The notes below the pieces were generated by a model. That model worked only from the letters and a program-made list of their open reading frames with translations. It was not told the origin of the DNA and searched no databases. From Escherichia phage vB_EcoM-RPN242: a DNA stretch of 64,000 nucleotides. Made by a program: the position numbers and the translations under genes. Positions 27,031-61,653 of the stretch are shown piece by piece. Where the stretch lies: the sequence record OL656110.1; one strand, given 5' to 3'. Each line of letters opens with the position of its first letter. The first letter of the stretch is position 1.

Positions 27031-27037
27031 TATTTAG
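27031..27037 (-). promoter_or_regulatory. late-promoter-like motif CTAAATACCCC upstream of uvsW
   Basis: Minus-strand CTAAATA about 25 nt upstream of the start codon; T4 late consensus is TATAAATA. Confidence 0.45.
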
Positions 27038-27780
27038 TGATCCGGCCAGACTCCGTTTTGTTCTTTATCCATGCGATGATACAGACGAACACGCTCAAAC
27101 ATCTTTGTCAGAATGTCATCACGGTTGAACTCAATGACGGTTGGTAGAGGGGAAGACTCGTTGGCGATCACGTTGATGAGGCGGGTGATCTTGACGCCGA
27201 ACATCTGCTGGAACATGACCGAATATAAGCACAGCTGGATACTGTAATCCTCGATCATGCCCCGCGTCTTCATGGTGTTCGATGTCTTGAAGTCGATGAC
27301 AGCAGGTTTACCCTCATAAACCCCGATAAGGTCTACACGACCTGCAAGACCAAGCACCTCACTATATAATGGGATCTCCTGAGCATAGATCTTTGTCATC
27401 TTGTTCAGGTAAGGGAACAGCTGCTTGAACATGAACATGTATTCGCCAGCCGCTTCCAACACTTCTTTCATTGGGCGGTTCTTTAGATACAGTTCACACG
27501 CAAGGTGCAGCTTCTCCCCTCGGTCAGCACAGCGCATGGTCTCAAGATCAGCGGCCTCTGCGCCCAGCTTCTTCCTCCAAGACTCAAGCCATTCATGATC
27601 TCCAGTGCGTCCCAGCATAGTCGTGACGGATGTCAGTTTTACACCAGACGGTGAAACGTAATGACGACCATTCTCCGTCGTAACACACTCCAGTTCCTTA
27701 TGAGGAAGTTCGTATTGCTGGAATGTGTAATGACGGTTTTCGAAGTCATTCAGCTTGCGTAGATCCTGGAGAGATGCCAT
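27034..27780 (-). CDS. PD-(D/E)XK exonuclease-like protein (YqaJ/lambda-Exo-like)
   Basis: GRVDLIGV...AVIDFKTS...YSIQLCLY fits the D...(D/E)xK...QxxxY nuclease motif; SD GAGGA. Confidence 0.55.
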   Translation of the reverse strand: MASLQDLRKLNDFENRHYTFQQYELPHKELECVTTENGRHYVSPSGVKLTSVTTMLGRTGDHEWLESWRKKLGAEAADLETMRCADRGEKLHLACELYLKNRPMKEVLEAAGEYMFMFKQLFPYLNKMTKIYAQEIPLYSEVLGLAGRVDLIGVYEGKPAVIDFKTSNTMKTRGMIEDYSIQLCLYSVMFQQMFGVKITRLINVIANESSPLPTVIEFNRDDILTKMFERVRLYHRMDKEQNGVWPDH

Positions 27781-27795
27781 TATGTGTGATCCTCG

Positions 27796-28248
27796 TTATA
27801 CACCATCAATATATTTTCTCCACTCAATAGCATTTTTCACTTCGTATCCCAGTTTGTTCAGGCGATCCAAACAAGTCTCTATGAACTTGACTTTTGCTTT
27901 TTGTTCTTGTAACAGAACAGACAACTCCACATAGTCATCGTCTGCTTTGACCCATGTATCTAGGTCAGACTTCAGGGGGCGAACCTTCAGGGGGCGATCT
28001 GCGTAGATGTTAGGGGGTAACTCCCCTGCATAGTAGCGGCGCAGATAGAGATCGATTTGGCGGAAGCGCCCGTTGAGAAATTCAAGATAACGTCCCTCGC
28101 GCAGATAATGCCGCTGTACAGCCATCCAAGAGCGCCCGATTTTCAGTGAGATCTGGTCAAGGTTCATGTCTTCTGGGTCCACTGTGATCAGCGGCTCCAG
28201 TTCGTTCATGATGTCCTCGGTAGCCATTGTCTGTAGTTGTTCTTTCAT
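27796..28248 (-). CDS. UvsY-like recombination mediator (tentative)
   Basis: 150 aa, adjacent to uvsW as in T4; C-terminal region has a UvsY-like pattern but similarity is weak. Confidence 0.5.
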   Translation of the reverse strand: MKEQLQTMATEDIMNELEPLITVDPEDMNLDQISLKIGRSWMAVQRHYLREGRYLEFLNGRFRQIDLYLRRYYAGELPPNIYADRPLKVRPLKSDLDTWVKADDDYVELSVLLQEQKAKVKFIETCLDRLNKLGYEVKNAIEWRKYIDGV

Positions 28249-28290
28249 AAAATATCCCAGCTTGTCAATGTCATAGAATTATACCGCATT

Positions 28291-28791
28291 TCATGGATTA
28301 GAATCAATCGCCTTCCCAACAGATAGTGGAACCAGCTGTTGGAACTTGAAGGTCACTGTCGTCACCAGCTGAGGTACAGCCGCGTCTACGTCCACCAGTA
28401 CGTTGTCCAAAGCAGTCGGGCGGGCTTCCTCCAGCACTAGAGTGAGGCCAATCGGTCGGTTGAGGTTATCCAGCAATTCAATGGTAATGTCCTTGCTGAC
28501 AGGCAAATCCTTGCCGACGTTGCTGGTAATCCATTGGTGGATCTGTAACCATGATTTCCAGTCCTCGTCTATAACGAAAGTAAATACGACGGGATCATAG
28601 GTTAAACGCTCTGAAGGTATAGAAACCAACACGTCACCAGGAGACGGACCATCGATGCCTTCGGAGTACACCCCTGGTATACTGAAGTCGTGGATGTTAC
28701 GGGTTAGGAGTACAAGGTCTCCGATAGTCAGACGCCACTTATCGGACGCCGCGAAATTAGGGTTTTCGTTCTTGAATTGTACGTTGGACAT
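28291..28791 (-). CDS. hypothetical protein (possible baseplate/tail component)
   Basis: 166-aa ORF from the ATG with SD AAGGTG; the longer track ORF overlaps a plus-strand ORF and looks like a shadow extension. Confidence 0.45.
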   Translation of the reverse strand: MSNVQFKNENPNFAASDKWRLTIGDLVLLTRNIHDFSIPGVYSEGIDGPSPGDVLVSIPSERLTYDPVVFTFVIDEDWKSWLQIHQWITSNVGKDLPVSKDITIELLDNLNRPIGLTLVLEEARPTALDNVLVDVDAAVPQLVTTVTFKFQQLVPLSVGKAIDSNP

Positions 28792-29062
28792 AATAGCACC
28801 TTTGCTGTGGAGATATTTTGTGACCCTGATGCGCGGGATCAGTAGATTGTTGTTGGCATGCTCGATGCTCTTGTTTACGAGCTGTCGCATCTTTGTCACG
28901 CCAATAATTTCTGTTTCCGAACTCTGGAACCCAGAAGTGCGCACTGTACCTGTGACGTTGTCGGCCAGCGTTCCCACTTGTAACAAGGGTATGCTGGACA
29001 TCATCGTGCAAGAGTTCCAGCCCTTCCAGAAGCTCGTACCTTTAGGTTGCTTTGATGAGAAC

Positions 29063-29470: not shown

Positions 29471-30199
29471 TTACTTCAGCGCGTTCTTCAGATTATCGGA
29501 ACCAATGCTGTTGATGACACCTCCGGCGCAGATATCTTTCGCCCACTCTGAGATCACGTTGGCAAAAGAGAAGTTAAGACACTTACCAACCATGTCTTGG
29601 ATATGGGCTAACTCTGCTGCAATACCGTTCGTGATGTCCTGAGCAATAGAGGCTACTGATGCGACAGCAGTGTCGATGGCCTGAGTAACTTCAGCAGCCA
29701 GTGCCTGAATAGCATCAAGACCAGCACCGACGCCCTGAGCTACCAACTCAGCCAGCTCATTCATCTTGTTTGTGATAGTTGTGAGAACACTTTGCATGGT
29801 GTTGATCCACTGTTTGCCGAGGTTCTGAATAACCCCAAATGCATTATTGATCAGATCACAGTTGTTCGGTTCTCGACCTATAGACTTCAGGGCGGACTTA
29901 TACGACACAGATGTACCGATGCGGGAATATGCCTCGTTCACTGACTGGTCGCCATAGTTGTTCAAAGTAGTGATGCTGTTGTTGGCTGAGTTGAACATTG
30001 CTGTAGATTCGTTGAGTTTGGCTGTAGTCAACCCACCTGCCGTCAGCGCTTCCTGAATCTGCGCATTTCCGGTGTTAGCCAGTGACGCTGTAGTCGCCTT
30101 ACCACTGGTGATTAACCCCTGTGAGGCGCTGCTGAGGGACGGGAGAGGATTGGTAAAGGCGTTGCCCTGTGATAGGGCGTCATAGATCTGTGCGTTCAT
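29471..30199 (-). CDS. hypothetical Ala/Thr/Gly-rich structural protein
   Basis: ORF with a CTAAATAC motif 28 nt upstream of ATG 30199; an alternative start at 30241 would make an ATGA overlap with the upstream gene. Confidence 0.5.
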   Translation of the reverse strand: MNAQIYDALSQGNAFTNPLPSLSSASQGLITSGKATTASLANTGNAQIQEALTAGGLTTAKLNESTAMFNSANNSITTLNNYGDQSVNEAYSRIGTSVSYKSALKSIGREPNNCDLINNAFGVIQNLGKQWINTMQSVLTTITNKMNELAELVAQGVGAGLDAIQALAAEVTQAIDTAVASVASIAQDITNGIAAELAHIQDMVGKCLNFSFANVISEWAKDICAGGVINSIGSDNLKNALK

Positions 30200-30227
30200 A
30201 AGAAAATACCCCCATGGATGATGGGGG

Positions 30228-30234
30228 TATTTAG
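30228..30234 (-). promoter_or_regulatory. late-promoter-like motif CTAAATACCCCC
   Basis: 28 nt upstream of ATG 30199; embedded in a palindrome. Confidence 0.4.
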
Positions 30235-30237
30235 GGA

Positions 30238-30408
30238 TCATGGTAGTTTGTAAACGAAGTTGGACCAGAACTTACGAACAAACTTCTTGACATAAACCAT
30301 TCGGTTGGCGTATTCCCCATCCTTCAGGTCATTGTAGGTCTCGATCCCTACCGCGCCCAAGAAGTACGCCGTGAAGATATAGCAGAACAGATTGATGACG
30401 ACAAACAT
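30238..30408 (-). CDS. small membrane protein (56 aa)
   Basis: Below the 60-aa cutoff of the ORF track. SD GGAGATA 4 nt upstream of the ATG; hydrophobic N-terminus MFVVINLFCYIFTAYFLGAVGI. Confidence 0.4.
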   Translation of the reverse strand: MFVVINLFCYIFTAYFLGAVGIETYNDLKDGEYANRMVYVKKFVRKFWSNFVYKLP

Positions 30409-30448
30409 GATGTATCTCCGCTGTGTGTACTCAATTATTTATGGTATG

Positions 30449-30871: not shown

Positions 30872-30875
30872 AGAA

Positions 30876-31635: not shown

Positions 31636-31643
31636 GTTTAACC

Positions 31644-32087: not shown

Positions 32088-32104
32088 GATATAGATCCTT
32101 CCTT

Positions 32105-32653: not shown

Positions 32654-34126
32654 TTAGTTCAAGACATATTTGATCAGTCCACAATTCCAAATCCTGACCA
32701 ACCCGGCTTCGGTTGCTAACTGGCTTTCTGTTTTGCCTTCTACGTCATACCCCATGCGAGCAAATGAACCTTTTCTGAAACCGAATTTGTGCTCACGCAT
32801 AAATGTGCCAGGCTTGTGATATTTGTAGTCTGGCTTCTGTACTTCCTCTTCTATGAATCCGTGGGATAGGTAAATGTTGGACAACCTGCTTACAACACAC
32901 CTATCCCCAAAGGAATAGATTTTGGTGTCGGCAAATTTTCTTCTGAAGTGTGAAAGAAGTTTACTGAATGCCCCGTGGCAATCATTAGAGGCAAATCTGA
33001 CTAATTCCAGGCCATCTTTCCTTTTAGTGAATAGCATCACGGCTTGTATGACCCCACTCTTGTCAATTAACGATAAATGGTGGGTGGAAGAAACGGAACC
33101 TTGTATGTGGTGGTTGTCTAAAAACTCCCTCAAGCCGCTTATATTTCCCCAAACGACTTTGTGTTGGCGAGCATATGACGCAGGCGTTTTAATGCCAAGT
33201 TTAGCTTTCAGAAGAGATTTGACCACTTCCTGTTTCTCAACCCATTCATCTTCCCAGATGTGGATCAACTGGATACCCTGAGATTCACATATTTCAGTCT
33301 TTTCCAGGTGATAATATTTCTCTTTAAAAACTTCTGAATGCCAGTACAGGCCATTAAATTCAATCGCCAATTTGTGTTCAGGGCAATAGATATCCAGTTG
33401 TTTACCGGATAATATACTGTAATCAGAAACAGTGTTTACAACTCCCATTGAGGTGAGAAACTCGGATATTTCCTTTTCATAAGAAGATTTCTTGTTCCTG
33501 ATAGAACCATTGCTGAACAACGCACGTTTTAGTATGTTCGAGTTTTTCATAGGGTTGTCAACACCATAACGTTCTTGTAACGTTGCCAACGCCTTCTCCC
33601 TCACACCAGGTAATTGTAGTGTGGAGCAGCTTCCGTATTTGGATATATTCGAAGTCTCTATGGCTTTCCGACCAATCCCACCTTTACACATAGAAACCTG
33701 ATAACATTCTTCAGAACAATATGTTCTGTAATCTTTATTATTGATATAAAAGTTGGTTTCCTTGGAACACACCGGGCATATTTTCACGGTTCTATTGTAC
33801 AGCCAAGCTGTGACTTTACAAGCCAAATCTTGTAGGGTGTTGTGGGTATTGGCGAACGCTAAAAGGTCTACATTGATGTGCTTCATAAGCAGTTCAGATT
33901 TGCATTTTTGGATATCCAATTTGTTGTTCTTGGTAAACATATATTTGTAGAAAAATTGGCGATATGATTCCTCGTCAGACAATTCATTCACTGCTTCAAG
34001 GAAACCTTCCGGGAGGTTCTTTAGGGTGTTCGATGCGAAGGTCTTGCAAGCATCTGAACAAAATTTCTTATCTTTCCTGGATGCTTTGAACTGTTCATGG
34101 CAGACACTACAGATTACCTGATACAT
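32654..34126 (-). CDS. zinc-ribbon plus restriction-endonuclease-like (Vsr/DUF559-type) protein; putative free-standing homing endonuclease
   Basis: N-terminal CxxC pairs; C-terminal LAIEFNGLYWHSE...IHIWEDEW resembles the Vsr/PD-(D/E)XK core. Strong SD GGAGGAGA upstream of ATG 34126. Inserted just downstream of the major capsid gene. Confidence 0.45.
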   Translation of the reverse strand: MYQVICSVCHEQFKASRKDKKFCSDACKTFASNTLKNLPEGFLEAVNELSDEESYRQFFYKYMFTKNNKLDIQKCKSELLMKHINVDLLAFANTHNTLQDLACKVTAWLYNRTVKICPVCSKETNFYINNKDYRTYCSEECYQVSMCKGGIGRKAIETSNISKYGSCSTLQLPGVREKALATLQERYGVDNPMKNSNILKRALFSNGSIRNKKSSYEKEISEFLTSMGVVNTVSDYSILSGKQLDIYCPEHKLAIEFNGLYWHSEVFKEKYYHLEKTEICESQGIQLIHIWEDEWVEKQEVVKSLLKAKLGIKTPASYARQHKVVWGNISGLREFLDNHHIQGSVSSTHHLSLIDKSGVIQAVMLFTKRKDGLELVRFASNDCHGAFSKLLSHFRRKFADTKIYSFGDRCVVSRLSNIYLSHGFIEEEVQKPDYKYHKPGTFMREHKFGFRKGSFARMGYDVEGKTESQLATEAGLVRIWNCGLIKYVLN

Positions 34127-34170: not shown

Positions 34171-34204
34171 TATGAACAAATAAAAACCCCGCCGAAGCGG
34201 GGTT
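34171..34204 (-). terminator. strong intrinsic terminator after major capsid gene
   Basis: AACCCCGC-cgaa-GCGGGGTT followed on the minus strand by TTTTTATTTG. Confidence 0.7.
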
Positions 34205-34230
34205 TGTCAGGGTTAAGGACAACTATTCGA

Positions 34231-35553: not shown

Positions 35554-35644
35554 GATGGTCATTCCTTACATTGATATTCAGTTAAGTTGAAATTACTTAG
35601 TAGTTCAAAATCAAGCCCCCTTTCGAGGGCTGTGGCTGCTAAAA

Positions 35645-36496
35645 TTAGCCGTTGATGCCGAAGCGACGATTATAGTCGGCCAACTGACGCTTGATAGATT
35701 CTTTCAGCTCTTTGTCTGTTTCATCTTCATCGTCATCTTCATCGCCTTCTTTCTTAGGCTTTTTGCCTTCGGCTTTAACATCTTTGTTGTCGTCATCGCC
35801 GTCTTTACCGCCGACTTTGTCCTGGAAGTCATCGTCATCGTCATCGCCTTCTTTCTTCACGGACTTACCTTCTACCAGGTTGCGGAAGGTGTGTACGCGG
35901 GAAGCGAATTCGCTTTCGGTGGTGAACTGCACAGCTTCCAGCAGATTGACAACCGTTGCTTTCTTGGTGTCGACCATACCTTCACAGATACGGGCGATCA
36001 CAGAGTCACGCAGAGTCGCATTCGCGGCTTCTTTGATTTGACGGTTTTCGCTTTCGGCAATCGCAGCACGTCGTTCTGCTTCGGTCAGGCGGGCAGTCAG
36101 CGCAGCGATCTGGCCGTTTTCGTCGGTGGCAAAGTTGATACCAGCTTCTTTCAGAACACCAGTCAGGCCAGTCAGCAGATTTTCAGCCGCTTCACGTTTG
36201 ATCTGAGCATCGATTCCAGGAGCGTTCTTGTTAGCCCACTCTTCTACAACAGCATTCAGGAAGCCATCGACTTTGGTCGCGATTTCCATCAAGTGAGACT
36301 CTTTCAGCTGAGCAATCTCAGCCTGATGAGCTTCAACCAGACGCAGGCGCTCAATGTTGGCAGCGTTTTCGGTTTCTTGAATAGCGTTCAGGCGAGCGGC
36401 TTCTACTTTAGATTCCAGCAGACCAGACACTTTATCCAGGAAGTCGGTGCTGAGGCCGTTAACGCCCTCAAACAGTTTTTGCAATTCAGGTTTCAT
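35645..36496 (-). CDS. 22: prohead scaffold protein (T4 gp22-like)
   Basis: Coiled-coil, highly acidic protein with a DDDDDD/EDDDEDE C-terminal tail; located between protease and capsid genes. Confidence 0.7.
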   Translation of the reverse strand: MKPELQKLFEGVNGLSTDFLDKVSGLLESKVEAARLNAIQETENAANIERLRLVEAHQAEIAQLKESHLMEIATKVDGFLNAVVEEWANKNAPGIDAQIKREAAENLLTGLTGVLKEAGINFATDENGQIAALTARLTEAERRAAIAESENRQIKEAANATLRDSVIARICEGMVDTKKATVVNLLEAVQFTTESEFASRVHTFRNLVEGKSVKKEGDDDDDDFQDKVGGKDGDDDNKDVKAEGKKPKKEGDEDDDEDETDKELKESIKRQLADYNRRFGING

Positions 36497-36523: not shown

Positions 36524-36530
36524 TATTTAG
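36524..36530 (-). promoter_or_regulatory. late-promoter-like motif CTAAATAC upstream of scaffold gene
   Basis: About 27 nt upstream of ATG 36496. Confidence 0.45.
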
Positions 36531-37535: not shown

Positions 37536-37706
37536 TTACTGGTCGTCGCCGAAAGGACCCATGTCTTGGCTCAGGGAGTTCAAGACATATTCAGTACCCT
37601 GCTGGACCAGTTCTTGGGCGCGAGCGGACAGCTCCATTTCGCATTCAGCAGCAGCGGCATCAGTATCACCAGCGATGATTGCTTTTACCAGATCGATAGC
37701 GGCCAT
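37536..37706 (-). CDS. small acidic prohead core protein (gp67-like by position)
   Basis: 56 aa from the ATG with SD AGAGGA at 7 nt; positioned between the portal and core genes. Confidence 0.4.
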   Translation of the reverse strand: MAAIDLVKAIIAGDTDAAAAECEMELSARAQELVQQGTEYVLNSLSQDMGPFGDDQ

Positions 37707-37743
37707 GTTCATATCCTCTAAATGTTTTCTATACTTAGTCGAA

Positions 37744-39438: not shown

Positions 39439-39503
39439 GATTAAGTCCTCAACATTTTCTTGTAATTAGTGAGGGGGAATAAGATCCCCCAGCACTGAGG
39501 ACA

Positions 39504-40037
39504 TTAGAGAGACTTGTCTGAGATGGCCTGGAAGTAACGCAGGTCAACAGTGAACTGAGTATAAGAGTCCATTGCAGACATGTCCAGTTCCAGCTGACCG
39601 AGGTTCTGAGGCCAGGCACCCTGAAGGGTCCAGGTCTTGGTGACGTTGTCATTCGCATCCAACAGTTCCATGATTACATCACGGAAATAATCATCTGGGT
39701 TAGCAGACGCACGGTTGTTGTTGCTGCCGTTGATATACTGCTGCCAGACTTCGAATGCGTTGTACGGGGCGTTGTCCACGACGTTGATGAACGTCACAGG
39801 CAGAGCCTCGAAGCGGCGGTCACCTGGGAATGGAAGTTCACGACCACCCCATGGGACGAGTATTTCCCCGAGCTGGCCTGTTGGGGTATTTGTGGTCACC
39901 GCCAACAGCGAAACATCACGGATAGTATCGCTTCCAGCCACGAAGGAAGGGAAGTTAACAGTCACACGCCAACGGTGTTGGCGCTGAACGCCACCCCCGC
40001 GTGACATAGCTGCTCTGAATTCATTAACTGTAGCCAT
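39504..40037 (-). CDS. 19: tail tube protein (T4 gp19-like)
   Basis: 177 aa; C-terminal GAWPQNLGQLELDMSAMDSYTQFTVDL parallels T4 gp19 GLWPTNVGELQLDWDSNNEIQTFEVTL. Confidence 0.8.
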   Translation of the reverse strand: MATVNEFRAAMSRGGGVQRQHRWRVTVNFPSFVAGSDTIRDVSLLAVTTNTPTGQLGEILVPWGGRELPFPGDRRFEALPVTFINVVDNAPYNAFEVWQQYINGSNNNRASANPDDYFRDVIMELLDANDNVTKTWTLQGAWPQNLGQLELDMSAMDSYTQFTVDLRYFQAISDKSL

Positions 40038-40057: not shown

Positions 40058-40771
40058 TTACACAATTCTAATTAGCTGCCAACCCGTCGTGTTCAAACGC
40101 TCTGCGGTCGCAGTTTTCCTATGATACACAGACGGTGGTGGAACTGGAATACCCTTGTCGATGTAATCATAGAGTGCTGAATATTTAAGTCCCAACCTCT
40201 CCACGTATTCGCGACAATTCCCGTGGATTTCGTATTCTTCGCCGGATGGAGATACCAATTTGAATCGCTTGGCATGACCGTTGTTCTTGCCCTTTCTGAT
40301 TCCAGTTTCAATGCATTTTCGACTAAATGATAATTTACCTTCTTCTTTCCATTCAACCCCGATCCGACAGCTAATGATTTCTCCTGTTTTCCACCGTGGA
40401 TCATCGCAATCAACTAAACCGAGATGTTCACCAGTAGAAGTCAAAACTGCTCCGTGTTTATTGGAAAATGTGGACCCGTCTCCACCCCAGGTCTTGTTGT
40501 ACCCTTTCTGAGTTGACATGTGGGTTCCGTGTTGCTTTATAAGAATGATTTCCAATTCTTTTAGATCTTCCAGGGATTTGGTCTGGGCTAACACTTGAAC
40601 AGAAAAGGACTCTTCTCCGTACTTTCTTATTGCTTGGTGAATAAAGTAATCAGATCCCTTCTGAGCACTATTGCAGTGCTCCCACCACCTTTGCATAGGG
40701 TCTCTCGTCGTTATCCCAATATAGGCTTTCTGATTGACTAGATTTGTAATTTTGTAAACACTTCCGATCAT
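40058..40771 (-). CDS. GIY-YIG homing endonuclease (free-standing, between tail tube and sheath genes)
   Basis: N-terminal GSVYKITNLVNQKAYIGIT...RWWEH is a classic GIY-YIG module; 237 aa. Confidence 0.8.
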   Translation of the reverse strand: MIGSVYKITNLVNQKAYIGITTRDPMQRWWEHCNSAQKGSDYFIHQAIRKYGEESFSVQVLAQTKSLEDLKELEIILIKQHGTHMSTQKGYNKTWGGDGSTFSNKHGAVLTSTGEHLGLVDCDDPRWKTGEIISCRIGVEWKEEGKLSFSRKCIETGIRKGKNNGHAKRFKLVSPSGEEYEIHGNCREYVERLGLKYSALYDYIDKGIPVPPPSVYHRKTATAERLNTTGWQLIRIV

Positions 40772-42749: not shown

Positions 42750-42791
42750 AATCTTATTCCTTCTCTGTAGAGTTTCGCTCAATTTGAAAGA

Positions 42792-42798
42792 TATTTAG
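42792..42798 (-). promoter_or_regulatory. late-promoter-like motif CTAAATAT upstream of sheath gene
   Basis: About 45 nt upstream of ATG 42749. Confidence 0.45.
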
Positions 42799-46394: not shown

Positions 46395-47045
46395 TTATTC
46401 TCCAAAGTCGATCTTCATATTGTCTGTTGCAAGCCCCTTCTCAAGATCATCTGCTAAAGCATTGTCGGTCTGCAGAGAAGAATCCTTGTACACGTCCGGT
46501 TCGTTCTCTTCGTCCAAGATGGACAGACGTTTGTCGATATCGTCGATCTCCGGAACGCCCGTATCGAAGTTTTCGTTGCCGTACTGGAACAACGTGCACG
46601 GCAGAGAGAACGTATACCATTTGCCAAATTGCATGAAGTCTTCATCGTTGTTCGGGTTGTTGACCTTGAAGATCTTGTTCGCCAGTGGTAGATAGATCAG
46701 GTCACCTTCCTGAGGTTGTTGTTCAAACCCAACACCGTTGCCTATCACCTCGGCAAATCGGCGGCGCGAGATAGAGAACGTCACTTCGTCTTGCAATTGG
46801 ATACCCCCAAACTTCTCCCACATCTGGGTGTTGAAGCCCTGATAATCCTGCATGTACGCTTCGATGTCGAACGCCTGGTCGAATCTGTGGTTAGCGTCGT
46901 TGGTGATAGGAAATTTTTCAACGATGGAACGGGGTATATACTTGATGTCTATCCCGCGCAACTCAATCATTTCCTGTACCAAATCTTCAATCAGCTTCTG
47001 TGTGCCTTGGTGATTGGTGGCGTTGAAATATTTAGAAGTGGCCAT
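46395..47045 (-). CDS. neck protein (gp14-like by synteny)
   Basis: 216-aa ORF between the gp15-like and gp13-like genes; SD GAGGG; CTAAATACC motif upstream. Confidence 0.5.
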   Translation of the reverse strand: MATSKYFNATNHQGTQKLIEDLVQEMIELRGIDIKYIPRSIVEKFPITNDANHRFDQAFDIEAYMQDYQGFNTQMWEKFGGIQLQDEVTFSISRRRFAEVIGNGVGFEQQPQEGDLIYLPLANKIFKVNNPNNDEDFMQFGKWYTFSLPCTLFQYGNENFDTGVPEIDDIDKRLSILDEENEPDVYKDSSLQTDNALADDLEKGLATDNMKIDFGE

Positions 47046-47068
47046 ATCAATACCCTCAATTTTGAAGG

Positions 47069-47075
47069 TATTTAG
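47069..47075 (-). promoter_or_regulatory. late-promoter-like motif CTAAATACC upstream of neck gene
   Basis: About 24 nt upstream of ATG 47045. Confidence 0.45.
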
Positions 47076-53578: not shown

Positions 53579-53585
53579 TATTTAG
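53579..53585 (-). promoter_or_regulatory. late-promoter-like motif CTAAATAT upstream of 1612-aa tail protein gene
   Basis: About 35 nt upstream of ATG 53544. Confidence 0.45.
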
Positions 53586-53947
53586 TATACAACCAACCGA
53601 GGAATAGAAAGAAATAAGCCCGAAGGGGCTTTGATTATCTTTCTGTGGTTATGGTCATGGATTCAAGACCTCCGCATTCTTCAGGAACTATTGCAGGGGT
53701 GCTGGTACAGCCAGGGAATGGAGAACGCAAACAAGGCGAACCAATGGAACCACAGTAGTAGGTTCAGATGCTAGTGTTAAGGTACAGGGTACAGACATTG
53801 CCAACAGAGATAACGTATTAGCCACTTACACACTTGGTTCGACAGACCCTTTCATGGTAGAAGGTATTCAATTGGGTATGTTTAATATCTCTGGGCAAGT
53901 AATCACCTTAACAGCAGTATCAATTAGGGTAATGCAAACAGTAAATT

Positions 53948-53978
53948 CTATATAAGAAAAGACCCCAAATGGGGTCTT
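53948..53978 (-). terminator. intrinsic terminator after tailspike 1
   Basis: AAGACCCCA/TGGGGTCTT hairpin followed on the minus strand by TTTTCTTATATAG. Confidence 0.6.
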
Positions 53979-53995
53979 AGTTTTACAGTTATAAG

Positions 53996-56221
53996 TCACG
54001 CTTCTGGCGAGGGGATAGTAAACCAATCGGACGCTGTTCCTGTTGTAGTGCCTTTATGCCTCCAGCCACTAACAGTTCTTTTTACCGTAGGGCTATCCTG
54101 CCAACCTGTTGCCGGGAGAAAGAAATTCCTCACTGGGGCGGGGTTTAACGCTCCAGTAGCTGGCGTGGCGGTTCCAGTCTGAGATGATACGAAGGTGGTT
54201 ACTGTTGAGTAATCTATTACGTTATCATCATGAAACGCATTCGTGTATAGATTTGCGGGTGCTGAGTTAACGAAGAATGCCGTAGTAACCCCGCTAACCT
54301 TGTTTCTATATACGTTGTTCCATCTACAGTTACCACCAAGGCGTATACCCTCAGAATCAGAAGCCCCCGCAATGGTGTTACTATCTATGTCACAATATTG
54401 GAAACTTTGAGCTACTAAAAACCGGCAACTATTACGCGTAACCCTGCCGTAAGTAGACGTACCATTGGCATAGTAAACTGTTATATTGCCAGATGTTAAA
54501 CAGTCTTTAATCGAGAAATTGGTCATAGGGCTAGTAAGGTATACACTGCCAGTACCTTTCACTGTAATGTTTATATTTTTTCTAACTGTCAGGGTGTATG
54601 CGGGCGCGCTATACATACTGACTATATACCCGTTCGCCCCTGTATTTACAGGGACATTTGCATCCACTGTCACATAATCACAGTCCTTAATTAATATCGC
54701 AGCGGTTGTTTGAGCGCCAGTCTTTACGAATCTAATAGACGGGTTTGTGATGGTAAAGTTCTGGCATTGCTCCATAAAGATAACGCCTGATACTTGATCG
54801 TCTGCCGCCAGCGAGTCTACAACAATACGCTGAGCACCAAATGCCCCCATAACCCCATACTTTCCGCCTTTAATATAATCAGCATGGGTGTTGCAGTCGA
54901 AGCATTTTGCACCAAAATATATACCTCCGTTGTTGGCCGTAGGTTTTAGGGTGTTATGGGATGTACGGATGTTACGGCAGCCAGCATAAGATATTATTTG
55001 CGCATCCCCACCGGTCCCTCCAATGTGGGTCGTACCTGTAACAGTACAATCTGTAGATCCGTAACCAAAAAATATATTACCATTTCCGACACGCCCGGTA
55101 TGGGTAGTGTTGTGGTACACCACACCGTACGCGTTATCATGCCTTGAACCGCCATTTCCATTATAATCAAAAACAGTACCATGGAACTCTATAAGCGAAG
55201 CCCCCACAGATTGGTACATGTAGCTAGACCCTGACGCAGAATTTTTTAAGATTCCCCCGATGAACTTAGTAGCGTTGCCTTTTATAAGATAAATAACCGA
55301 ATTGGTGGTAGTTAGGTCCCACGGTAAAGCCGTTGCTAAATTTACGGTAGCACCTGATATGGACGAGATTAAAAAAGATTCGCCTTGGTATCCGGTTACA
55401 TCCGGATTCTGTGCGTTGGCAATATACCAAGCGTCACTTGTGTCCTCAGTGCGTATTACCAACGCCCGAGTATACCCAGTTCCTGCCACCTCAGATGTTA
55501 ATGTGATGGACGTTGCTCCGGAAGCCGCAGGGGAAAGCAAGCTGAATTGGCTCTCGCTGACGAAATTAAGAGCATTAGCGGTCAATGATGTCAACCCAGC
55601 ACCGTGACCGAAAGTAAAAATCGTACCTTTTGGTATGTTGACTTGTGAATGGGAAATTGTCATGCCCGGAGGAACAAAAACATTCCCCGAGTTAATGGCT
55701 AACTGTAAACTAGATGCCTCATCAGACCCATCACCGACAACCCCAAAAGCACGCACGTCCCGTAAATTAGGATCTGTCTGCGGCTTCCAGTCAGCGTTAC
55801 CAACTGGGTTAGTTCCTGCGACAATAGTTACAGGTAAGGAACCTAAGTAGGTGTAACCTATGCCATTATAAAATAGTAATTCATTTCTAGTATTCACAAC
55901 TAAACCAGTAGCAAACGAGTCGGATAGGTTCACGAACTCTCTACGTGTAGCAGCCAGTTCCCCCAAATCAACTGTGCCTGCGGAATGAACCAGGACTGCA
56001 TGTTTATTGAGGCTTACGGCAGTGGTTCCTACTGGAAGTACAGGTAATGAGTAAGCACGTTGGGTAGACTTGTCATAGATTACTTTGTAGCCACCCAAGT
56101 CCACTCCCACAGCAAAGTAGACTACTTCATTTTGCTTAACACCAAACTTACGAGCAATGGCTTGCTTATTGGTAAGAATACCAGTAGAGCCTTTACCGCC
56201 TTGTGAGAACATTTCGTTCAT
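53996..56221 (-). CDS. tailspike protein 1 (beta-helix type)
   Basis: 741 aa; N-terminal module NKQAIARKFGVKQNEVVYF...VLVHSAGTVDLGELA is shared with the other tailspikes; C-terminus is repetitive and Gly/Asn/Thr-rich, typical of a parallel beta-helix. Confidence 0.75.
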   Translation of the reverse strand: MNEMFSQGGKGSTGILTNKQAIARKFGVKQNEVVYFAVGVDLGGYKVIYDKSTQRAYSLPVLPVGTTAVSLNKHAVLVHSAGTVDLGELAATRREFVNLSDSFATGLVVNTRNELLFYNGIGYTYLGSLPVTIVAGTNPVGNADWKPQTDPNLRDVRAFGVVGDGSDEASSLQLAINSGNVFVPPGMTISHSQVNIPKGTIFTFGHGAGLTSLTANALNFVSESQFSLLSPAASGATSITLTSEVAGTGYTRALVIRTEDTSDAWYIANAQNPDVTGYQGESFLISSISGATVNLATALPWDLTTTNSVIYLIKGNATKFIGGILKNSASGSSYMYQSVGASLIEFHGTVFDYNGNGGSRHDNAYGVVYHNTTHTGRVGNGNIFFGYGSTDCTVTGTTHIGGTGGDAQIISYAGCRNIRTSHNTLKPTANNGGIYFGAKCFDCNTHADYIKGGKYGVMGAFGAQRIVVDSLAADDQVSGVIFMEQCQNFTITNPSIRFVKTGAQTTAAILIKDCDYVTVDANVPVNTGANGYIVSMYSAPAYTLTVRKNINITVKGTGSVYLTSPMTNFSIKDCLTSGNITVYYANGTSTYGRVTRNSCRFLVAQSFQYCDIDSNTIAGASDSEGIRLGGNCRWNNVYRNKVSGVTTAFFVNSAPANLYTNAFHDDNVIDYSTVTTFVSSQTGTATPATGALNPAPVRNFFLPATGWQDSPTVKRTVSGWRHKGTTTGTASDWFTIPSPEA

Positions 56222-56497
56222 AATGACCTCTTTGTTTTTCTAAGTAAGCCTCCCAACGTGGGGAGGCATGTAAGTAAAGTTATTTACCGATTCTCAATTC
56301 AGCTAACCAACCTAGAATTTGTTTATTGATTCTAGACGGGTAAGCAGCCTCTAACCATGCACATCGGTCTGGTATTAAACCTCACCTTGAACCAGCAGGA
56401 GTAACAAATTCTTTCCATCCTTTCTGTAGAACTCAGGTATACGCTTCTTTAATACCATTATTACCAACAATACTTGCATACACAACAGACACTAAAC

Positions 56498-56530
56498 TCT
56501 ATATAAGAAAAGGTCCCGAATGGGACCTTT
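56498..56530 (-). terminator. intrinsic terminator after tailspike 2
   Basis: AGGTCCC-gaat-GGGACCT hairpin followed on the minus strand by TTTCTTATATAG; the same flanking motif CTATATAAGAAAAG as at 53948. Confidence 0.55.
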
Positions 56531-56539
56531 ATAATAAAA

Positions 56540-58963
56540 TTAAGGGCTAACCCGATACCACCCGTCGTAGCTAATATACAAACGTTTACCGGACACAACT
56601 GCATCAATGCGAAGCGTTTTTTCACCTTCAGTAAAGAACGCTCCTCCAGTGTTCCCGATGTTCATTCGAAAGCTGGCTGGAATATTTCCAGAGGTAAAAC
56701 CGATGTCCCCGTTGTTCACCCCTGTTACTGCTATGTATGCGTAATCCCGCGCGACAGGAAATCCTGTCACAGATATGAACTGACTGGTGCCGGAACTCCA
56801 TTCAATTGTCACATCAAACACACCGAATATATGAGCAAAATCTCCGACATAATTTATGTTATGTACGGTATACTCGCCGTATGATATCACCGCATTGGTG
56901 CCTGATTGAACTGTAATTTCAGGCGAACCGGGGTCATTCGCTAAGAAAGTACGGTCTGGTCTGATTTTGGCGGATGAATTCGCCACCGTTCTGGTAACGT
57001 TGTTGAGCCAACCGGCCTCCACCGGATCCCCATTTCGCGTAGACCTTACAATGTTGTTACGCAATATTGCGTTAAAAAACGTAATATCGGAGATGTAAAT
57101 ATTATGGTGCTGCCCGGCTACGGCCCCGCCAAACAACATCCCATTAGAGTTGTACTCATAAGATACGTTGTTCTCAATGATGCTGTTGCGCGCCACTCCA
57201 TTTAATTCTAGCCATGATATGTTAGACGGGCCTGTGTAATCAGAACCAAGTCTAATACTGGTGTTATTGGTGAATGAGCTATGGTCGAAATTATCCAATC
57301 TCCAGTTAATACCCAGAGTGCCTTCTTGACCATTCCCAGTTACCGTTACCCCTAGCAGGTTCTGTAATATATAGCCATAACACACTCTTGTCCTGTCCGG
57401 ATAATAGTCGTTCCTGTTAGTGTGATCACAGGCATTAGCCTCTATAACAGAGTATTTAAGATCCCGATAGCAATGCCCATAATCACGGCAACTATTACTA
57501 TAGTTAGTAGATATTACGCATGAAGTGCCGTTGTTTATAAATATCCCACCGAGACATGCGGTAACGCGGTTGTTTCCTACTCGCGACGCAAATACAACAG
57601 GGAGAATTAGCCCATACTTGCAATCGTAAATATAGACGTCTTCTATCGTGGCGTCGGATACCACGCCTGCATTTACGATACCAAATTCTACCGCGTGGTT
57701 TTCCGTTGTAGTTTTTGTCCCATGCAGAGTAACCCCTGTGATGACACCGGACCATCTTGAACTACTAGAATCCCCTAAACAAATAACCGCATTCATATCT
57801 GTAGGCAGGGTTCCGGTATATCCTCCAGATAGTGCAGGCGCCGTCACCAGAACTGTAACGGTAGTGGATGTCGTTTTCGTTATAGTAACTGATTCGCGAC
57901 TTCTCCCTATTACTGATACATTCGATGGTAGAGCAAGAGTACTGCTTATTTTATAGTTACCATCCGGGAAATAAACCACGCCTTTTGTGGTGCTGGCATA
58001 AGCTATAGCTGCTTTTATAGCTACCGTATCATCAGTAGCTCCGTCACCAACAGCACCAAAATCTTTAACGTTATAGTAGTCTTTAAAATGGCTATCAATG
58101 GTTCGCTTAATTGCAGAAGAAACACCAGATAAGCCAGAATTTACTAATGTTCCCCCATCAGTAACCATAGCCGTTTTATATACCTGCAACTCATTCTCCA
58201 CTGGAGTTACATCATTGGGTGCAGGGAGCAGGTCAACAACAATCCCACCAGGATTGTATGTTAGTTGGTCACCATTAACGGAAGAAATATATACGTTAGT
58301 AGGCAATGTAGGCAACCCATATGCCTTCTGCTCACTAACAGAATAAATAATCTTCTTACCATTGAGGGACTGAGTAGTATCGGTGCTAAGAATTACTTCA
58401 CTATCTTTAACGTTAGTAGCACGAGCGATTTCTTGAATACTTCGGTCAAACAACGGACTGATATTCGGTTGTTTAACAGACATTTCAGCGACTACCCAAA
58501 CGCCTGCTGTCAGCGCAGTTTGTAAAGACACTTTCCCTGTCGTGCTGTCATAGGAATATTCAATTTCGGGTGTTTTGTACTCACCACCGATATAAAGAGA
58601 TTGGACTCCATAAGATGTGTAATCAGGAGTGAACTCGGTTTCACCTCCTATAGCCTGAAACTTATAGATTCGAATCCCAGTTTTATAATCTTCTGGAGAC
58701 AGAATCTTATCAAACAGACAGAACACAACGTCACCTTTGGATAATGCGCGTCCGAGATTTAACGTATTTCCATCGATTTCAAAGTTGTCTAACGGAACTT
58801 GCATACCACCGTTGATTGTGACTATACCAGTGACAGGGTAGAAAGGGAGGGAGATAAACTTCTCTCCGCCCGTTGCTGTGTAAGTGTATGGAATCTGGTG
58901 CGGAGCTGTTACGACCGCTCCAAAGATGCTCTCGACGTTTCTGGTCATTTGAAAATACCCCAT
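56540..58963 (-). CDS. tailspike protein 2 with extended N-terminal anchor and pectate-lyase-like beta-helix
   Basis: 807 aa; an N-terminal region of about 200 aa precedes the shared ARATNVKDSEV module; YNVKDFGAVGDGATDDT is the pectate-lyase-superfamily signature. Confidence 0.8.
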   Translation of the reverse strand: MGYFQMTRNVESIFGAVVTAPHQIPYTYTATGGEKFISLPFYPVTGIVTINGGMQVPLDNFEIDGNTLNLGRALSKGDVVFCLFDKILSPEDYKTGIRIYKFQAIGGETEFTPDYTSYGVQSLYIGGEYKTPEIEYSYDSTTGKVSLQTALTAGVWVVAEMSVKQPNISPLFDRSIQEIARATNVKDSEVILSTDTTQSLNGKKIIYSVSEQKAYGLPTLPTNVYISSVNGDQLTYNPGGIVVDLLPAPNDVTPVENELQVYKTAMVTDGGTLVNSGLSGVSSAIKRTIDSHFKDYYNVKDFGAVGDGATDDTVAIKAAIAYASTTKGVVYFPDGNYKISSTLALPSNVSVIGRSRESVTITKTTSTTVTVLVTAPALSGGYTGTLPTDMNAVICLGDSSSSRWSGVITGVTLHGTKTTTENHAVEFGIVNAGVVSDATIEDVYIYDCKYGLILPVVFASRVGNNRVTACLGGIFINNGTSCVISTNYSNSCRDYGHCYRDLKYSVIEANACDHTNRNDYYPDRTRVCYGYILQNLLGVTVTGNGQEGTLGINWRLDNFDHSSFTNNTSIRLGSDYTGPSNISWLELNGVARNSIIENNVSYEYNSNGMLFGGAVAGQHHNIYISDITFFNAILRNNIVRSTRNGDPVEAGWLNNVTRTVANSSAKIRPDRTFLANDPGSPEITVQSGTNAVISYGEYTVHNINYVGDFAHIFGVFDVTIEWSSGTSQFISVTGFPVARDYAYIAVTGVNNGDIGFTSGNIPASFRMNIGNTGGAFFTEGEKTLRIDAVVSGKRLYISYDGWYRVSP

Positions 58964-58984
58964 AAAGGATTTGCCAATATGGGG

Positions 58985-58991
58985 TATTTAG
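58985..58991 (-). promoter_or_regulatory. late-promoter-like motif CTAAATACCCC upstream of tailspike 2
   Basis: Part of a conserved cassette repeated at 61647. Confidence 0.45.
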
Positions 58992-59014
58992 TCTGAACTA
59001 ATAAATTTATAAAC

Positions 59015-59044
59015 AAATGTATAGAGAAACCCCGCCGAAGCGGG
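59015..59044 (-). terminator. intrinsic terminator after tailspike 3
   Basis: CCCCGC-cgaa-GCGGGG hairpin, the same core as at 34187 and 61693; T-rich on both sides. Confidence 0.6.
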
Positions 59045-59066
59045 GCTAGTTTTTATTTGTGGTGTG

Positions 59067-61616
59067 TCAATTGAGTTTTGATATCTCTACAGTTATACCG
59101 AATACGTTATTCGGTCTACTTGTGGTTGTAGCTATAGTTAGCTCAAAGAAATGCGCGTTTATATCTGGTGACTGTGTGTATCCCGCAGAATTAGTTAATG
59201 TTACATTGAGTGATATGTCCGAATCTGTTACGCCGTTTATGCGAATTTCATTCACAGGTCCTGATAGCGACGCGGCGGAAGTTGCACCTATCTTATGATT
59301 TACCAGGTACGTCTTCTCAATATAAGCAACGGATCCCCCATTATTATATGAAGAGCACGACTTAACTTTTACCAGTAGGTTTTGCGATTCTAATGTTCCA
59401 TAGTTATCAAAAATCTTTAAAACTTTGTTAGCAGATGCACCAGAAATGCTTCCACAGTTCACTTCCCATAATGTAGTTCTATTCGCATTCGGTGCGTTCT
59501 CATACATGTAGAAACTACCATCTGGAATTACCCTGTTGTTTATTAATGTTTTCAGATTTCCGCAGTTACCTATTAGTCTCACGTGGGCATTGATGTTTGT
59601 TAATGTTACTGTTTTTATTTTTGATTCTGTGTTTGCGCACCTAATAGAACCACCCATGCAGTTAATATTTTCGTAATAGACATTACCAGCTTGCCACGGT
59701 AACGCGAAAATATCGTCCGCCCGGTTTTTATAATTGAGCGCAACATTAGCAGCAATCCAGTCTCGGTGCATAGAAGAATCACCAGTAAATGTGACGATAC
59801 CTATTTGAGGGTCTTCTGCTGGGGTTGTGCCCAAACTGGCAACTATATTGATATCTGTCAGCTCACCACCAAGACATCTTATATTTGGCATATCATATTC
59901 TTCGGTGGCAAATACGTTACGCCATTTAGCATCAAAACCAGCGTGCGAGTCCATCGTGGCGAAGTTATTATAACCGAAGCACTTTTTAACCTCGAACTTG
60001 TTGAACCATGTTGTTGGGGAGGCAGCATGTCTACAGAATGATGCTGTGATGCTATCAACAACTGTATCGTAAGTGCCCGCCGCAGGGCTGATAGGATACT
60101 GACACCTATTAGCAACTACATTGCCAATCCTTGGCATATAGCAAGCTATTAATAAGTACGAGGAACCACCACTGGTTTCCACGTCACCAGAAAAGACTGG
60201 CATATAAAAACCACGGAACCATGAAGATGAAACCCCAAATGATGCGGTGCCTATATTAACAAAAGATGAGTTATCACGGTTGTTAAAGTGCTCCATCTTG
60301 AAGTTATTGAAAATCAACCTTACCGGTTTGTACCTGTTAACCTTAACGTTGTTTGCTACTAGATGATCGAATAGCGCTGGCCTATCAACTTTCATATTAG
60401 AACCAGATTCACGCTCTGCAATAAACAACTCCCTTGAGTTAAAATTCCACTGAGTCTCGTACGTCTTGTTGTCCTCTATATAAATCAAATCACCCTCTAC
60501 AGCCCCAGCCACCCGCGCAACTGTGGAGCCGCTTACCATATCAGCTAGAAGTGAAGACTGAATCTCGGTTGATGACAGGTGCATTTCCACCCCATCAGAG
60601 GCCCCGAACAGCTTTATGCCAGACCAATCAACAACTAAGTTTTTATCAATCGACAATAGTTCTATATTACTGGTTACAGTAACCTCACCGACTGACCTGA
60701 AGTATCCACGGCACCCGGATGTGTAAGCTACAGTCAGGAATTCAGATATAGTCTGGCCTGATACAGACCCTCCAGCGGTTATGCCGAAATCATCTCCGCA
60801 AATCGCGCTTATAGGGGTAAATGATGTTAATGCCGGCTGGGAAGCAGACCTGACCCACATTGTACCGCCGGTTGAGCATACCGAATCTACAGGTAACTCT
60901 GCCTCCGTGGACGCAATCATCTCGTAAAAAGAGGAGAAATGTTTGTATATTCCAGCAACTTTGTAACCACCAGTTATAGGATTAGTCCCAGCGACAACTA
61001 TACCAGCAGGACCGGAGAACGCCTTACCAGTGCGTTCTTGTAGTAGCACATCGTTGGCGTTCACTAGTGTACCGCCCGACTCAAAGCTACCATCTACTAG
61101 ATTATAGCCTGCTGTTGCATAGCTACGGCGCAACGCCTCACGGGTCTGTGTACTTGTGAACTGATTGGAGCACCTAATATAACCACTCCCTGGAAGAGTA
61201 GGGTCTGTGCCAGCAGGAACTACTTTAGGTAATGCCCCATCCCAACGGTACTTCCCATCTGTAAAGACAACTAATTCATTCTTGGTATTAACTGTTACAC
61301 CGGTATCAAATGACCCAGACAATGTGACGTACTCTTCACGAGATACAGCCAATTCCCCGAGATCTACAGAACCTGCTGAATGTACCAGGATTGCCTGTTC
61401 GTTCAGACTTATCGCAGTCGTTCCTGAAACAATACCTGAAGGAAGAGAATAAGCCCGTTGGGTAGACTCATCATAAATTACTTTAAATCCACTGAGATCA
61501 ATACCAGCAGTGAAATAAATGACTTCGTCTTCTTTGACACCGAAATTTCGAGCGATAGATTGTTTGTTAACTTCTATGGAAGTGGAGCCGCGTGGTTGAT
61601 TGAATTGAGAAATCAT
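59067..61616 (-). CDS. tailspike protein 3
   Basis: 849 aa; N-terminus VNKQSIARNFGVKEDEVIYF and a 60-aa block nearly identical to tailspike 4. Confidence 0.75.
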   Translation of the reverse strand: MISQFNQPRGSTSIEVNKQSIARNFGVKEDEVIYFTAGIDLSGFKVIYDESTQRAYSLPSGIVSGTTAISLNEQAILVHSAGSVDLGELAVSREEYVTLSGSFDTGVTVNTKNELVVFTDGKYRWDGALPKVVPAGTDPTLPGSGYIRCSNQFTSTQTREALRRSYATAGYNLVDGSFESGGTLVNANDVLLQERTGKAFSGPAGIVVAGTNPITGGYKVAGIYKHFSSFYEMIASTEAELPVDSVCSTGGTMWVRSASQPALTSFTPISAICGDDFGITAGGSVSGQTISEFLTVAYTSGCRGYFRSVGEVTVTSNIELLSIDKNLVVDWSGIKLFGASDGVEMHLSSTEIQSSLLADMVSGSTVARVAGAVEGDLIYIEDNKTYETQWNFNSRELFIAERESGSNMKVDRPALFDHLVANNVKVNRYKPVRLIFNNFKMEHFNNRDNSSFVNIGTASFGVSSSWFRGFYMPVFSGDVETSGGSSYLLIACYMPRIGNVVANRCQYPISPAAGTYDTVVDSITASFCRHAASPTTWFNKFEVKKCFGYNNFATMDSHAGFDAKWRNVFATEEYDMPNIRCLGGELTDINIVASLGTTPAEDPQIGIVTFTGDSSMHRDWIAANVALNYKNRADDIFALPWQAGNVYYENINCMGGSIRCANTESKIKTVTLTNINAHVRLIGNCGNLKTLINNRVIPDGSFYMYENAPNANRTTLWEVNCGSISGASANKVLKIFDNYGTLESQNLLVKVKSCSSYNNGGSVAYIEKTYLVNHKIGATSAASLSGPVNEIRINGVTDSDISLNVTLTNSAGYTQSPDINAHFFELTIATTTSRPNNVFGITVEISKLN
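61239..61385 (-). repeat. near-identical coding repeat in tailspike 3 N-terminal module
   Basis: About 145 bp with only a few mismatches against 63519-63665; encodes the shared VLVHSAGSVDLGELAVSREEYVTLSGSFDTGVTVNTKNELVVFTDGKYRWDG block. Confidence 0.8.
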
Positions 61617-61646
61617 GATAATACCCCAAGAATGACCAATATGGGG

Positions 61647-61653
61647 TATTTAG
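61647..61653 (-). promoter_or_regulatory. late-promoter-like motif CTAAATACCCC upstream of tailspike 3
   Basis: Part of a conserved cassette repeated at 58985. Confidence 0.45.

Follow-up and report, generated by a model that had tools for sequence, protein, structure and literature searches.

A CTAAATA-type box before structural genes of a ViI-like Escherichia phage as a putative gp55-dependent late promoter

Late promoters of phage T4 consist of a single box, TATAAATA, which spans positions -13 to -6 and is followed by an AT-rich stretch; they lack a -35 element and depend on gp55, gp33 and gp45. In the Aeromonas phage Aeh1, comparison of the regions upstream of late-gene orthologues yielded CTAAATA, 'beginning at -12', as the late-promoter core (Nolan et al. 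2006), and the late promoters of this phage have been summarised as a/gC at -13/-12 (Geiduschek & Kassavetis 2010). For ViI-like phages, the EspM4VN paper (PMC7283392) cites two 'unique regulatory motifs', of which CTAAATAcCcc is one, and the LIMEstone1 paper lists 33 late promoters. The present analysis concerns this motif in a stretch of 64,000 nucleotides (nt) from Escherichia phage vB_EcoM-RPN242, sequence record OL656110.1, referred to here as the window. An earlier reading of the window, made from its letters and open reading frames (ORFs) and called the sequence-only reading below, had noted CTAAATA upstream of late genes and had proposed it as a variant of the gp55-dependent late promoter. 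The C-tailed form of the motif reportedly originated in the 2012 Viunalikevirus proposal in Arch Virol.

On the evidence assembled here, aCTAA(A/G/T)TA is very probably the -10-like box of the late promoters of a ViI-like phage, read by the gp55 homologue that the phage encodes. Box, strand, gene class, conservation and the encoded gp55 and gp45 homologues all support the proposal, which stays a putative assignment. The box is already described and annotated for the ViI-like phage family, and the finding is in this respect correct and ordinary. In the LIMEstone1 record (HE600015, 2012), TAAATA hexamers before the orthologues of the box-bearing genes are labelled 'putative late promoter', with features at uvsW, ORF129, gp22, gp18, gp14, the large structural protein and two tailspike genes; there is no late-promoter feature in that record at gp23 or gp20, where the box is a G or T variant. 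The record of AV101, a near-identical phage, carries no promoter features.

Over the whole window, CTAAATA has 11 exact copies, all of them on the minus strand, which is the coding one; the plus strand has none, and whole-window dinucleotide shuffles predict 4.6 +/- 2.2 copies for the two strands together. Nine of them lie 23-42 nt upstream of start codons, measured from the end of the box to the ATG, and the genes behind them are regA, uvsW, an ORF129-like gene, gp22, gp18, gp14, a tail protein of 1612 amino acids (aa) and two tailspikes. All eight exact copies that the sequence-only reading had listed are among these, at gaps near the distances it gave. CTAAATA ranks first of all 7-mers found 20-60 nt upstream of coding-strand starts (hypergeometric p = 1.7e-11); this zone comprises 4.1% of positions, yet 9 of the 11 coding-strand copies start there, against 0.36 +/- 0.59 in dinucleotide shuffles of the zone segments (maximum 3 in 2000). 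Enrichment by position relative to start codons, which had been suggested as a check, is thus borne out, and base composition, which would have spoken against the proposal, does not account for the frequency. The remaining 2 of the 11 copies are intragenic and are probably chance occurrences, since their number fits the background of about 2.3 per strand. The window does not contain the T4 consensus TATAAATA, and ATAAATA, GTAAATA and TTAAATA show no comparable placement upstream of starts there. The boxes, followed by the two intragenic copies, are given below.

22602-22608, minus strand: CTAAATA, 30 nt before the regA start at 22571; overlaps the gp62 stop codon and lies outside the range of the sequence-only reading
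27031-27037, minus strand: CTAAATA, 25 nt before the uvsW start at 27005; tail CCCC
30228-30234, minus strand: CTAAATA, 28 nt before the start of the ORF129-like virion gene at 30199; tail CCCCC
35594-35600, minus strand: CTAAGTA, 40 nt before gp23 (major capsid); directly after the terminator at 35614-35631
36524-36530, minus strand: CTAAATA, 27 nt before the gp22 (scaffold) start at 36496
37732-37738, minus strand: CTAAGTA, 25 nt before the start at 37706 of the 56-aa gene that heads the prohead-core/gp21 cluster
39463-39469, minus strand: CTAATTA, 24 nt before the gp20 (portal) start at 39438
40069-40075, minus strand: CTAATTA, 31 nt before the gp19 (tail tube) start at 40037
42792-42798, minus strand: CTAAATA, 42 nt before the gp18 (sheath) start at 42749; just after the gp17 stop codon
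47069-47075, minus strand: CTAAATA, 23 nt before the gp14 (neck) start at 47045; tail CCTT
53579-53585, minus strand: CTAAATA, 34 nt before the start of the 1612-aa tail protein at 53544; after the terminator at 53616-53631
58985-58991, minus strand: CTAAATA, 36 nt before the tailspike ATG at 58948, which is preceded by a Shine-Dalgarno (SD) sequence; terminator at 59030-59045; tail CCCC
61647-61653, minus strand: CTAAATA, 30 nt before the tailspike start at 61616; after the terminator at 61691-61710; tail CCCC
47029-47035, minus strand: CTAAATA, intragenic, in gp14 codons 4-6; probably a chance copy
63020-63026, minus strand: CTAAATA, intragenic, far inside a tailspike ORF that continues beyond the window; likewise probably due to chance

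Considering all single-base variants of the 7-mer, only CTAAGTA and CTAATTA are restricted to the upstream zone in the window, with 2 of 2 coding-strand copies each. The near-matches that had been reported before the capsid and portal genes were recovered as CTAAGTA before gp23 and CTAATTA before gp20, and two further variant sites were added to them, CTAAGTA before the 56-aa gene and CTAATTA before gp19. In the matrix of the 13 sites, position -13 is mostly A (10 sites, with G at 2 and C at 1), the bases C(-12), T, A and A are invariant, as are the final T and A, and position -8 is A at 9 sites and G or T at 2 sites each. No column upstream of -13 is conserved in this matrix, hence there is no -35 element, and the upstream flanks of the boxes are unrelated between genomes. 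An A-rich patch covers the nucleotides six and seven places past the box, which would correspond to +1 and +2, and C occupies -5 and -4 at 7 of the 13 sites each. Position -8 thus appears to be degenerate (A/G/T), which assigns candidate boxes to the capsid, portal and tube genes and constitutes a modest addition to the published motif.

The distribution of boxes over the gene map is likewise uneven. The map was built from ORF calls and from AV101 start codons transferred to the window, each verified by hand. Of 23 structural or late genes, 11 have a box in front of them, and of 41 other genes 2 do, namely uvsW and regA (Fisher p = 9e-5); no box is present in the first 22 kb of the window. Canonical GC-rich terminators stand directly upstream of four boxes, those of gp23, the tail protein and both tailspikes, and a terminator followed by a box is the arrangement expected for independent transcription units. 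At uvsW, the stop codon of the exonuclease-like gene upstream lies within the box; this box is invariant in 7 sequence variants from relatives, and its orthologue is a late-promoter feature in LIMEstone1.

Conservation was followed in IMG/VR loci that contain the orthologues with 10-kb flanks, 9 genomes for the uvsW-to-gp18 region and 19 for gp18 to the tailspikes. The box of uvsW, gp22, gp18, gp14 and the large tail protein does not change between orthologous sites, in up to 20 related genomes, while the bases on either side diverge; the flanks of gp14 and the tail protein have been replaced by unrelated sequence in some lineages with the box kept, and at gp14 it is invariant across three unrelated upstream contexts. 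Taken together, the 28 related loci have 152 copies of CTAAATA on the coding strand and 11 on the other. The variants behave in a similar manner, as CTAAGTA before gp23 is invariant in all relatives examined, the gp19 site has either CTAATTA or CTAAATA at the identical position depending on the lineage, and the site of the 56-aa gene is CTAAGTA in Aglimvirinae and CTAAATA in Kuttervirus-type genomes. ORF129 is the exception, with CTAAATA, TTAAATA or the T4-type TATAAATA by lineage and the downstream hairpin retained; the TTAAATA and TATAAATA forms were seen at the ORF129 orthologue of Kuttervirus-type relatives (loci L035-L040). As far as sequence comparison can tell, other bases may be tolerated at -12 of this site, or selection may act on the hairpin instead. 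In a control with distant T4-like loci, found through a scaffold protein of 22-28% identity, TATAAATA and not CTAAATA shows the strand bias (5/0, 6/0 and 7/1, for example), and in stretches of the Aeh1 genome CTAAATA is found on the coding strand only.

The presumed reader of the box and its expected partner are both encoded in the window.

2906-3697, minus strand: homologue of the late sigma factor gp55, which presumably reads the box; matches PHROG 234 ('late sigma transcription factor') at E = 3e-52
24099-24767, minus strand: gp45 sliding clamp homologue; PHROG 223, E = 1e-64, and AV101 annotation

A profile of 17 members of the family of the gp55 homologue matches T4 gp55 in PDB 7d7c (7d7c_F) with E = 6e-7, and the counterpart of 2906-3697 is annotated as gp55-like in the AV101 record. 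The gp55 homologue that the sequence-only reading had placed here is confirmed by the PHROG and profile matches. The profile of 17 sequences was needed for this, as phmmer with the single sequence gave no T4 gp55 match among PDB sequences, and Pfam gave no matches for gp55, gp45 or the neighbouring proteins. In T4-type phages gp45 is the activator of late transcription, and homologues of gp55, gp33 and gp45 are described for a relative in the phiSboM-AG3 paper.

T4 gp55 reads the non-template strand, with the bases at -12, -9 and -8 flipped into pockets, and A(-12) enters a deep pocket where it stacks on Y97. In the profile alignment, four residues of the T4 pockets are retained in the homologue (N13 as N21, R57 as R66, F86 as F93 and T99 as T111) and two are changed, Y97 to the family-invariant W109 and H95 to F107. 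The change of Y97 to W109 was considered as the cause of the C(-12) preference and was rejected as a general explanation, since NPHAY is retained in the gp55 of Aeh1, a phage with the same preference. With H95/Y97 kept in Aeh1 gp55 and F/W found in the Ackermannviridae, the residue change does not account for the C(-12) common to both, which may have an independent origin in the two groups, judging from the sequences. Separately, in the C-terminal ~35 residues of the gp55 homologue, QFNLEDD aligns with the C-terminal LSFLEDD of Aeh1 gp55, in the clamp-binding-motif region, and Ackermannviridae gp55 has an extra tail of ~30 residues after QFNLEDD.

Compared with the described systems, the box of the window is closest to that of the ViI-like phages, with the same family, the same 7-mer and orthologous positions, and with the tail at a subset of sites. 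The published forms are without the -8 variants CTAAGTA and CTAATTA and take cCcc as part of the motif, however nothing essential differs. Aeh1 shares the identical core, including C(-12), and the purine at -13, and its gp55 has also diverged from that of T4; it belongs, however, to another family, Straboviridae, and the gp55 pocket is of T4 type at H95/Y97, in contrast to F/W in Ackermannviridae. With T4 are shared TAAATA, the lack of a -35 element and the placement before structural genes as well as uvsW and regA, together with gp55 and gp45, but T4 has TA at -13/-12 where aC is found here, position -8 is degenerate here, and in place of an AT-rich segment right after the box, CC(CC) is found at 5 of the 13 sites.

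We infer gp55 dependence, start site and late timing from these comparisons as follows. Host RNA polymerase core with phage gp55, aided by the gp45 clamp, would recognise the box, which by alignment with T4 TATAAATA would read a(-13) C(-12) T A A N(-8) T A(-6). The complex would then open the DNA, and transcription would start approximately 6 nt downstream in the A-rich patch, a position which that patch fits. The thirteen boxes would in this manner head late transcription units, several of them directly after an intrinsic terminator.

Several points weigh against this interpretation. No mapping of late-transcript 5' ends, and nothing on their timing or gp55 dependence, was found in the literature for any Ackermannviridae phage, and gp33 was not identified within the window. 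At five sites CC(CC) follows the box, which should hinder opening. At ORF129 the -12 base varies (C, T, A) and the hairpin is kept, so that structure may outweigh the box there. No box precedes gp3, gp13, gp15-17 and one tailspike, which may be co-transcribed with upstream genes, and the two tailspike sites are duplicates and hence not independent.

The 'cc' said to follow the box often is indeed present at 5 of the 9 exact sites (uvsW, ORF129, gp14 and two tailspikes); as an extension of the promoter motif it fares less well, since it appears to be a hairpin-linked feature of a subset of sites, outside the core box. The tail is CCCC(C) at four exact sites and CC at one more, and it is absent at the others. 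At the five sites, the last five bases of the box (AAATA) and the tail pair with the GGGG/GAGGG SD sequence and TATT(T), and the predicted folds amount to -11 to -21 kcal/mol with 0.7-0.99 of the SD bases paired. The 5' arm begins in the box and ends near the predicted +1, a position that relies on T4 numbering; in folding predictions, RNA that begins at this +1 is devoid of the 5' arm and the hairpin is lost. Four of these hairpins are listed here.

30204-30232, minus strand: ORF129 hairpin, AAATACCCCCAT / ATGGGGGTATTT, predicted at -19.5 kcal/mol in context; 5' arm from box and tail, 3' arm from the GGGGG SD sequence and spacer
47049-47072, minus strand: gp14 hairpin, AATACCTTCA / TGAGGGTATT, predicted at -11.5 kcal/mol; the box tail pairs with the gp14 SD sequence
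58953-58989, minus strand: tailspike hairpin, AAATACCCCATA / TATGGGGTATTT, predicted at -20.8 kcal/mol in context; buries the ribosome-binding site
61620-61650, minus strand: tailspike hairpin, AATACCCCA / TGGGGTATT, predicted at -13.7 kcal/mol in context; buries the ribosome-binding site

The pairing was tested in 22 box-bearing ortholog groups from the window and its relatives, using as control the 5' arms against the ribosome-binding regions of other genes. Strong cognate pairing was limited to 5 of the 22 groups, ORF129, gp14 and three tailspike leader types, with medians of -11 to -18 kcal/mol as compared to about -3 to -4 for non-cognate pairs; uvsW pairing is weak (-7.3 cognate vs -4.9 kcal/mol non-cognate) and was counted as marginal only. 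Every CCCC tail falls in six groups, which are the five strong ones and uvsW. In relatives the stem of the ORF129 hairpin is conserved and the loop variable, and paralogous stems differ in sequence but stay complementary (CCCC-ATA/TAT-GGGG, CCCC-TAGATG/CATTTA-GGGG, CCCCC-AT/AT-GGGGG and CCTTCAA/TTGAGGG). The cCcc tail is thus modelled as a site-specific anti-SD arm outside the core box, again a modest addition to what is published.

A comparable arrangement is known from T4, where read-through early transcripts of e, soc, 49 and I-TevI sequester the ribosome-binding site (Uzan & Miller 2010), and where the 5' strand of the sequestering helix is encoded by the late-promoter region, so that late transcripts begin within this helix. 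The likeness lies in an SD sequence sequestered in a predicted helix whose 5' arm overlaps the late-promoter box; the genes, however, are different (tailspikes, gp14, ORF129-like and uvsW), and the stems here are GC-cored with T-rich sequence. We infer the effect of the hairpin accordingly from folding models: RNA reading through from upstream would fold the hairpin and be silenced or terminated, and RNA started at the box would lack the 5' arm and be translatable. The hairpins could also terminate read-through, since the stems are GC-cored and then followed by T-rich sequence, and the logic in both cases would be insulation from upstream transcription. That the cCcc extension is the anti-SD arm of a promoter-embedded hairpin, no promoter determinant, and insulates tailspikes, gp14 and ORF129 from read-through is an evenly balanced proposal. 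If true, it would mean that the mechanism of T4 e, soc, 49 and I-TevI also operates in a second phage family, and would describe a portable terminator-promoter-leader module that travels with tailspike genes.

A motif that acts in RNA, as an endonuclease processing site or as a signal for stability or translation, rather than as a DNA promoter, is an improbable alternative. It would suit the strand specificity of the motif, its constant location in the 5' leader region and the conservation of the gp18 and gp23 leaders well past the box, and T4-type phages do employ sequence-specific RNases and RegA operators. However, the box often comes directly after a terminator, where a new start is needed, its distance of 23-42 nt from the start codon is unlike RegA operators, which overlap the AUG, and at the hairpin sites the motif is base-paired in RNA. 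It also has 6 of 8 positions in common with the T4 gp55 box and a core identical to that of Aeh1. As regards the leaders themselves, those of gp18 (42750-42791) and gp23 (35554-35593) are near-invariant across all relatives examined, and far more conserved than adjacent coding third positions, which suggests, from the alignments, an additional function such as translation control or RNA stability.

Just as improbable is that the motif merely represents the A-tract and 5' stem of intrinsic terminators of the upstream genes (AAATA-CCCC...GGGG-TATTT). The GC-cored hairpins with following T-rich sequence at five sites would fit such a role, the ORF129 hairpin carries the label of factor-independent terminator in the LIMEstone1 record, and it is this hairpin that is conserved where the first base of the box is variable. 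On the other hand, 8 of the 13 boxes have no such hairpin, the invariant C-T prefix falls outside the stem, and both tailspike hairpin sites possess a separate GC-rich terminator 40-60 nt upstream. With their T-run forming part of the stem, these hairpins were not called by a generic terminator scan of the coding strand; besides, termination and promoter function are compatible at one site.

Slightly less probable still is that the boxes are weak -10 elements of host sigma-70 polymerase with no phage sigma factor involved. TAAATA matches TATAAT at 3 of 6 positions and clear TATAAT boxes do occur at other genes of the window, uvsY for example, however the boxes have no conserved -35 or TG extension upstream and do not end in the T that is key to a -10 hexamer, the motif is restricted to late and structural genes, generic sigma-70 scans are unenriched, and the phage encodes a gp55 homologue. 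Lastly, chance or composition of AT-rich intergenic DNA with its TAA stop codons, to which the TAA within the motif, the stop-codon overlap at uvsW and regA and the two background-level intragenic copies might point, is refuted by the statistics and has next to no probability, given the excess over composition-matched shuffles of upstream segments, the strand bias in relatives, the invariance of the box amid diverged flanks and an overlap with stop codons at 2 of the 13 boxes only.

Sequence identity places the source phage among the Ackermannviridae (ViI-like, Aglimvirinae). The DNA of ViI-type phages carries hypermodified thymidine. The 6.8-kb capsid-to-portal stretch is 98.9% identical to Escherichia phages AV101 and LHE287 and 87% identical to Dickeya Limestonevirus phages, and weaker matches comprise ~280 records from Salmonella, Klebsiella, Serratia and others, all of them Ackermannviridae. 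Gene content was taken from the record of AV101 (Ackermannviridae; Aglimvirinae), and nearly all genes are on the minus strand. The first ~22 kb contain the gp55-like sigma factor, RNase H, a helicase and many small hypothetical genes; regA, gp62, gp44, gp45, uvsW and uvsY come next, then gp3, gp23, gp22, gp21, gp20, gp19, gp18, gp17, gp16, gp15, gp14 and gp13, and finally the 1612-aa VriC-like protein (the large tail protein) and the tailspike genes. No Rfam family was found in the window.

A few local features of the map were also observed. At ~11800-15430 the window is ~3.1 kb shorter than AV101, and no ORF of a length matching the nicotinamide phosphoribosyltransferase or ribose-phosphate pyrophosphokinase of AV101 is present at the corresponding position. 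For the ORF129-like gene, AV101 uses the ATG at 30241, ahead of the box and overlapping the stop codon of the preceding gene, and LIMEstone1 uses the equivalent of 30199, with a GGGGG SD sequence before it; the shorter gene (29471-30199) looks correct on this comparison. Between gp23 and the upstream small genes, a 490-aa ORF at 32654-34126 is the positional counterpart of the LIMEstone1 homing endonuclease F-LimVII, and it is preceded by a strong terminator of its own (34184-34205). A sigma-70-type GGTATAAT before uvsY (~28250-28310) is conserved in all Aglimvirinae relatives. TTCAAT-N13-TATAAT at 15340-15376, before the gene ending at 15320, resembles the published family motif TTCAAT[N14]TATAAT; TTCAAT-N14-TATAAT was tried as an early-region contrast and set aside as too sparse, with 2-3 matches.

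The tailspike region (56000-64000) has a GC content of 42-43%, against ~48-51% elsewhere, and diverges from AV101, which is consistent with horizontally exchanged receptor-binding modules. Both tailspike genes with boxes share a module of a GC-rich terminator, a ~45-nt near-identical block and a hairpin leader (58985-59045 and 61647-61710, minus strand). The block reads TTTGTT(C/T)ATAAATTTATTAGTTCAGA + CTAAATACCCCATATTGG, with copies at 58985-59030 and at the 61647 site, and in relatives the sequence upstream of the tailspike box may be unrelated with box and leader kept. From its sequence, this module looks like a portable cassette boundary for tailspike exchange. The tailspike gene at 53996-56221 is the sole tailspike fully in view that has no CTAA(A/G/T)TA box; long non-coding gaps flank it (56222-56540, ~320 nt, and 53586-53995, ~410 nt), and GTAAATA occurs 66 nt upstream of it, followed by a GC-rich hairpin.

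Overall, a genuine regulatory signal was recovered from sequence alone, and the box should help to annotate late transcription units in Ackermannviridae genomes, many of which are poorly annotated. Accepting A, G or T at -8 would give boxes to capsid, portal and tail-tube genes, which are without a feature in, or were missed by, the TAAATA-based annotation of LIMEstone1. With C(-12), Ackermannviridae would offer a natural specificity variant for structural work on gp55, as T4 gp55 flips that base into a pocket. The tailspike box seems to travel together with its leader and hairpin, and a tail that serves as a hairpin arm would be relevant to the engineering or swapping of tailspike cassettes in therapeutic and biocontrol phages.

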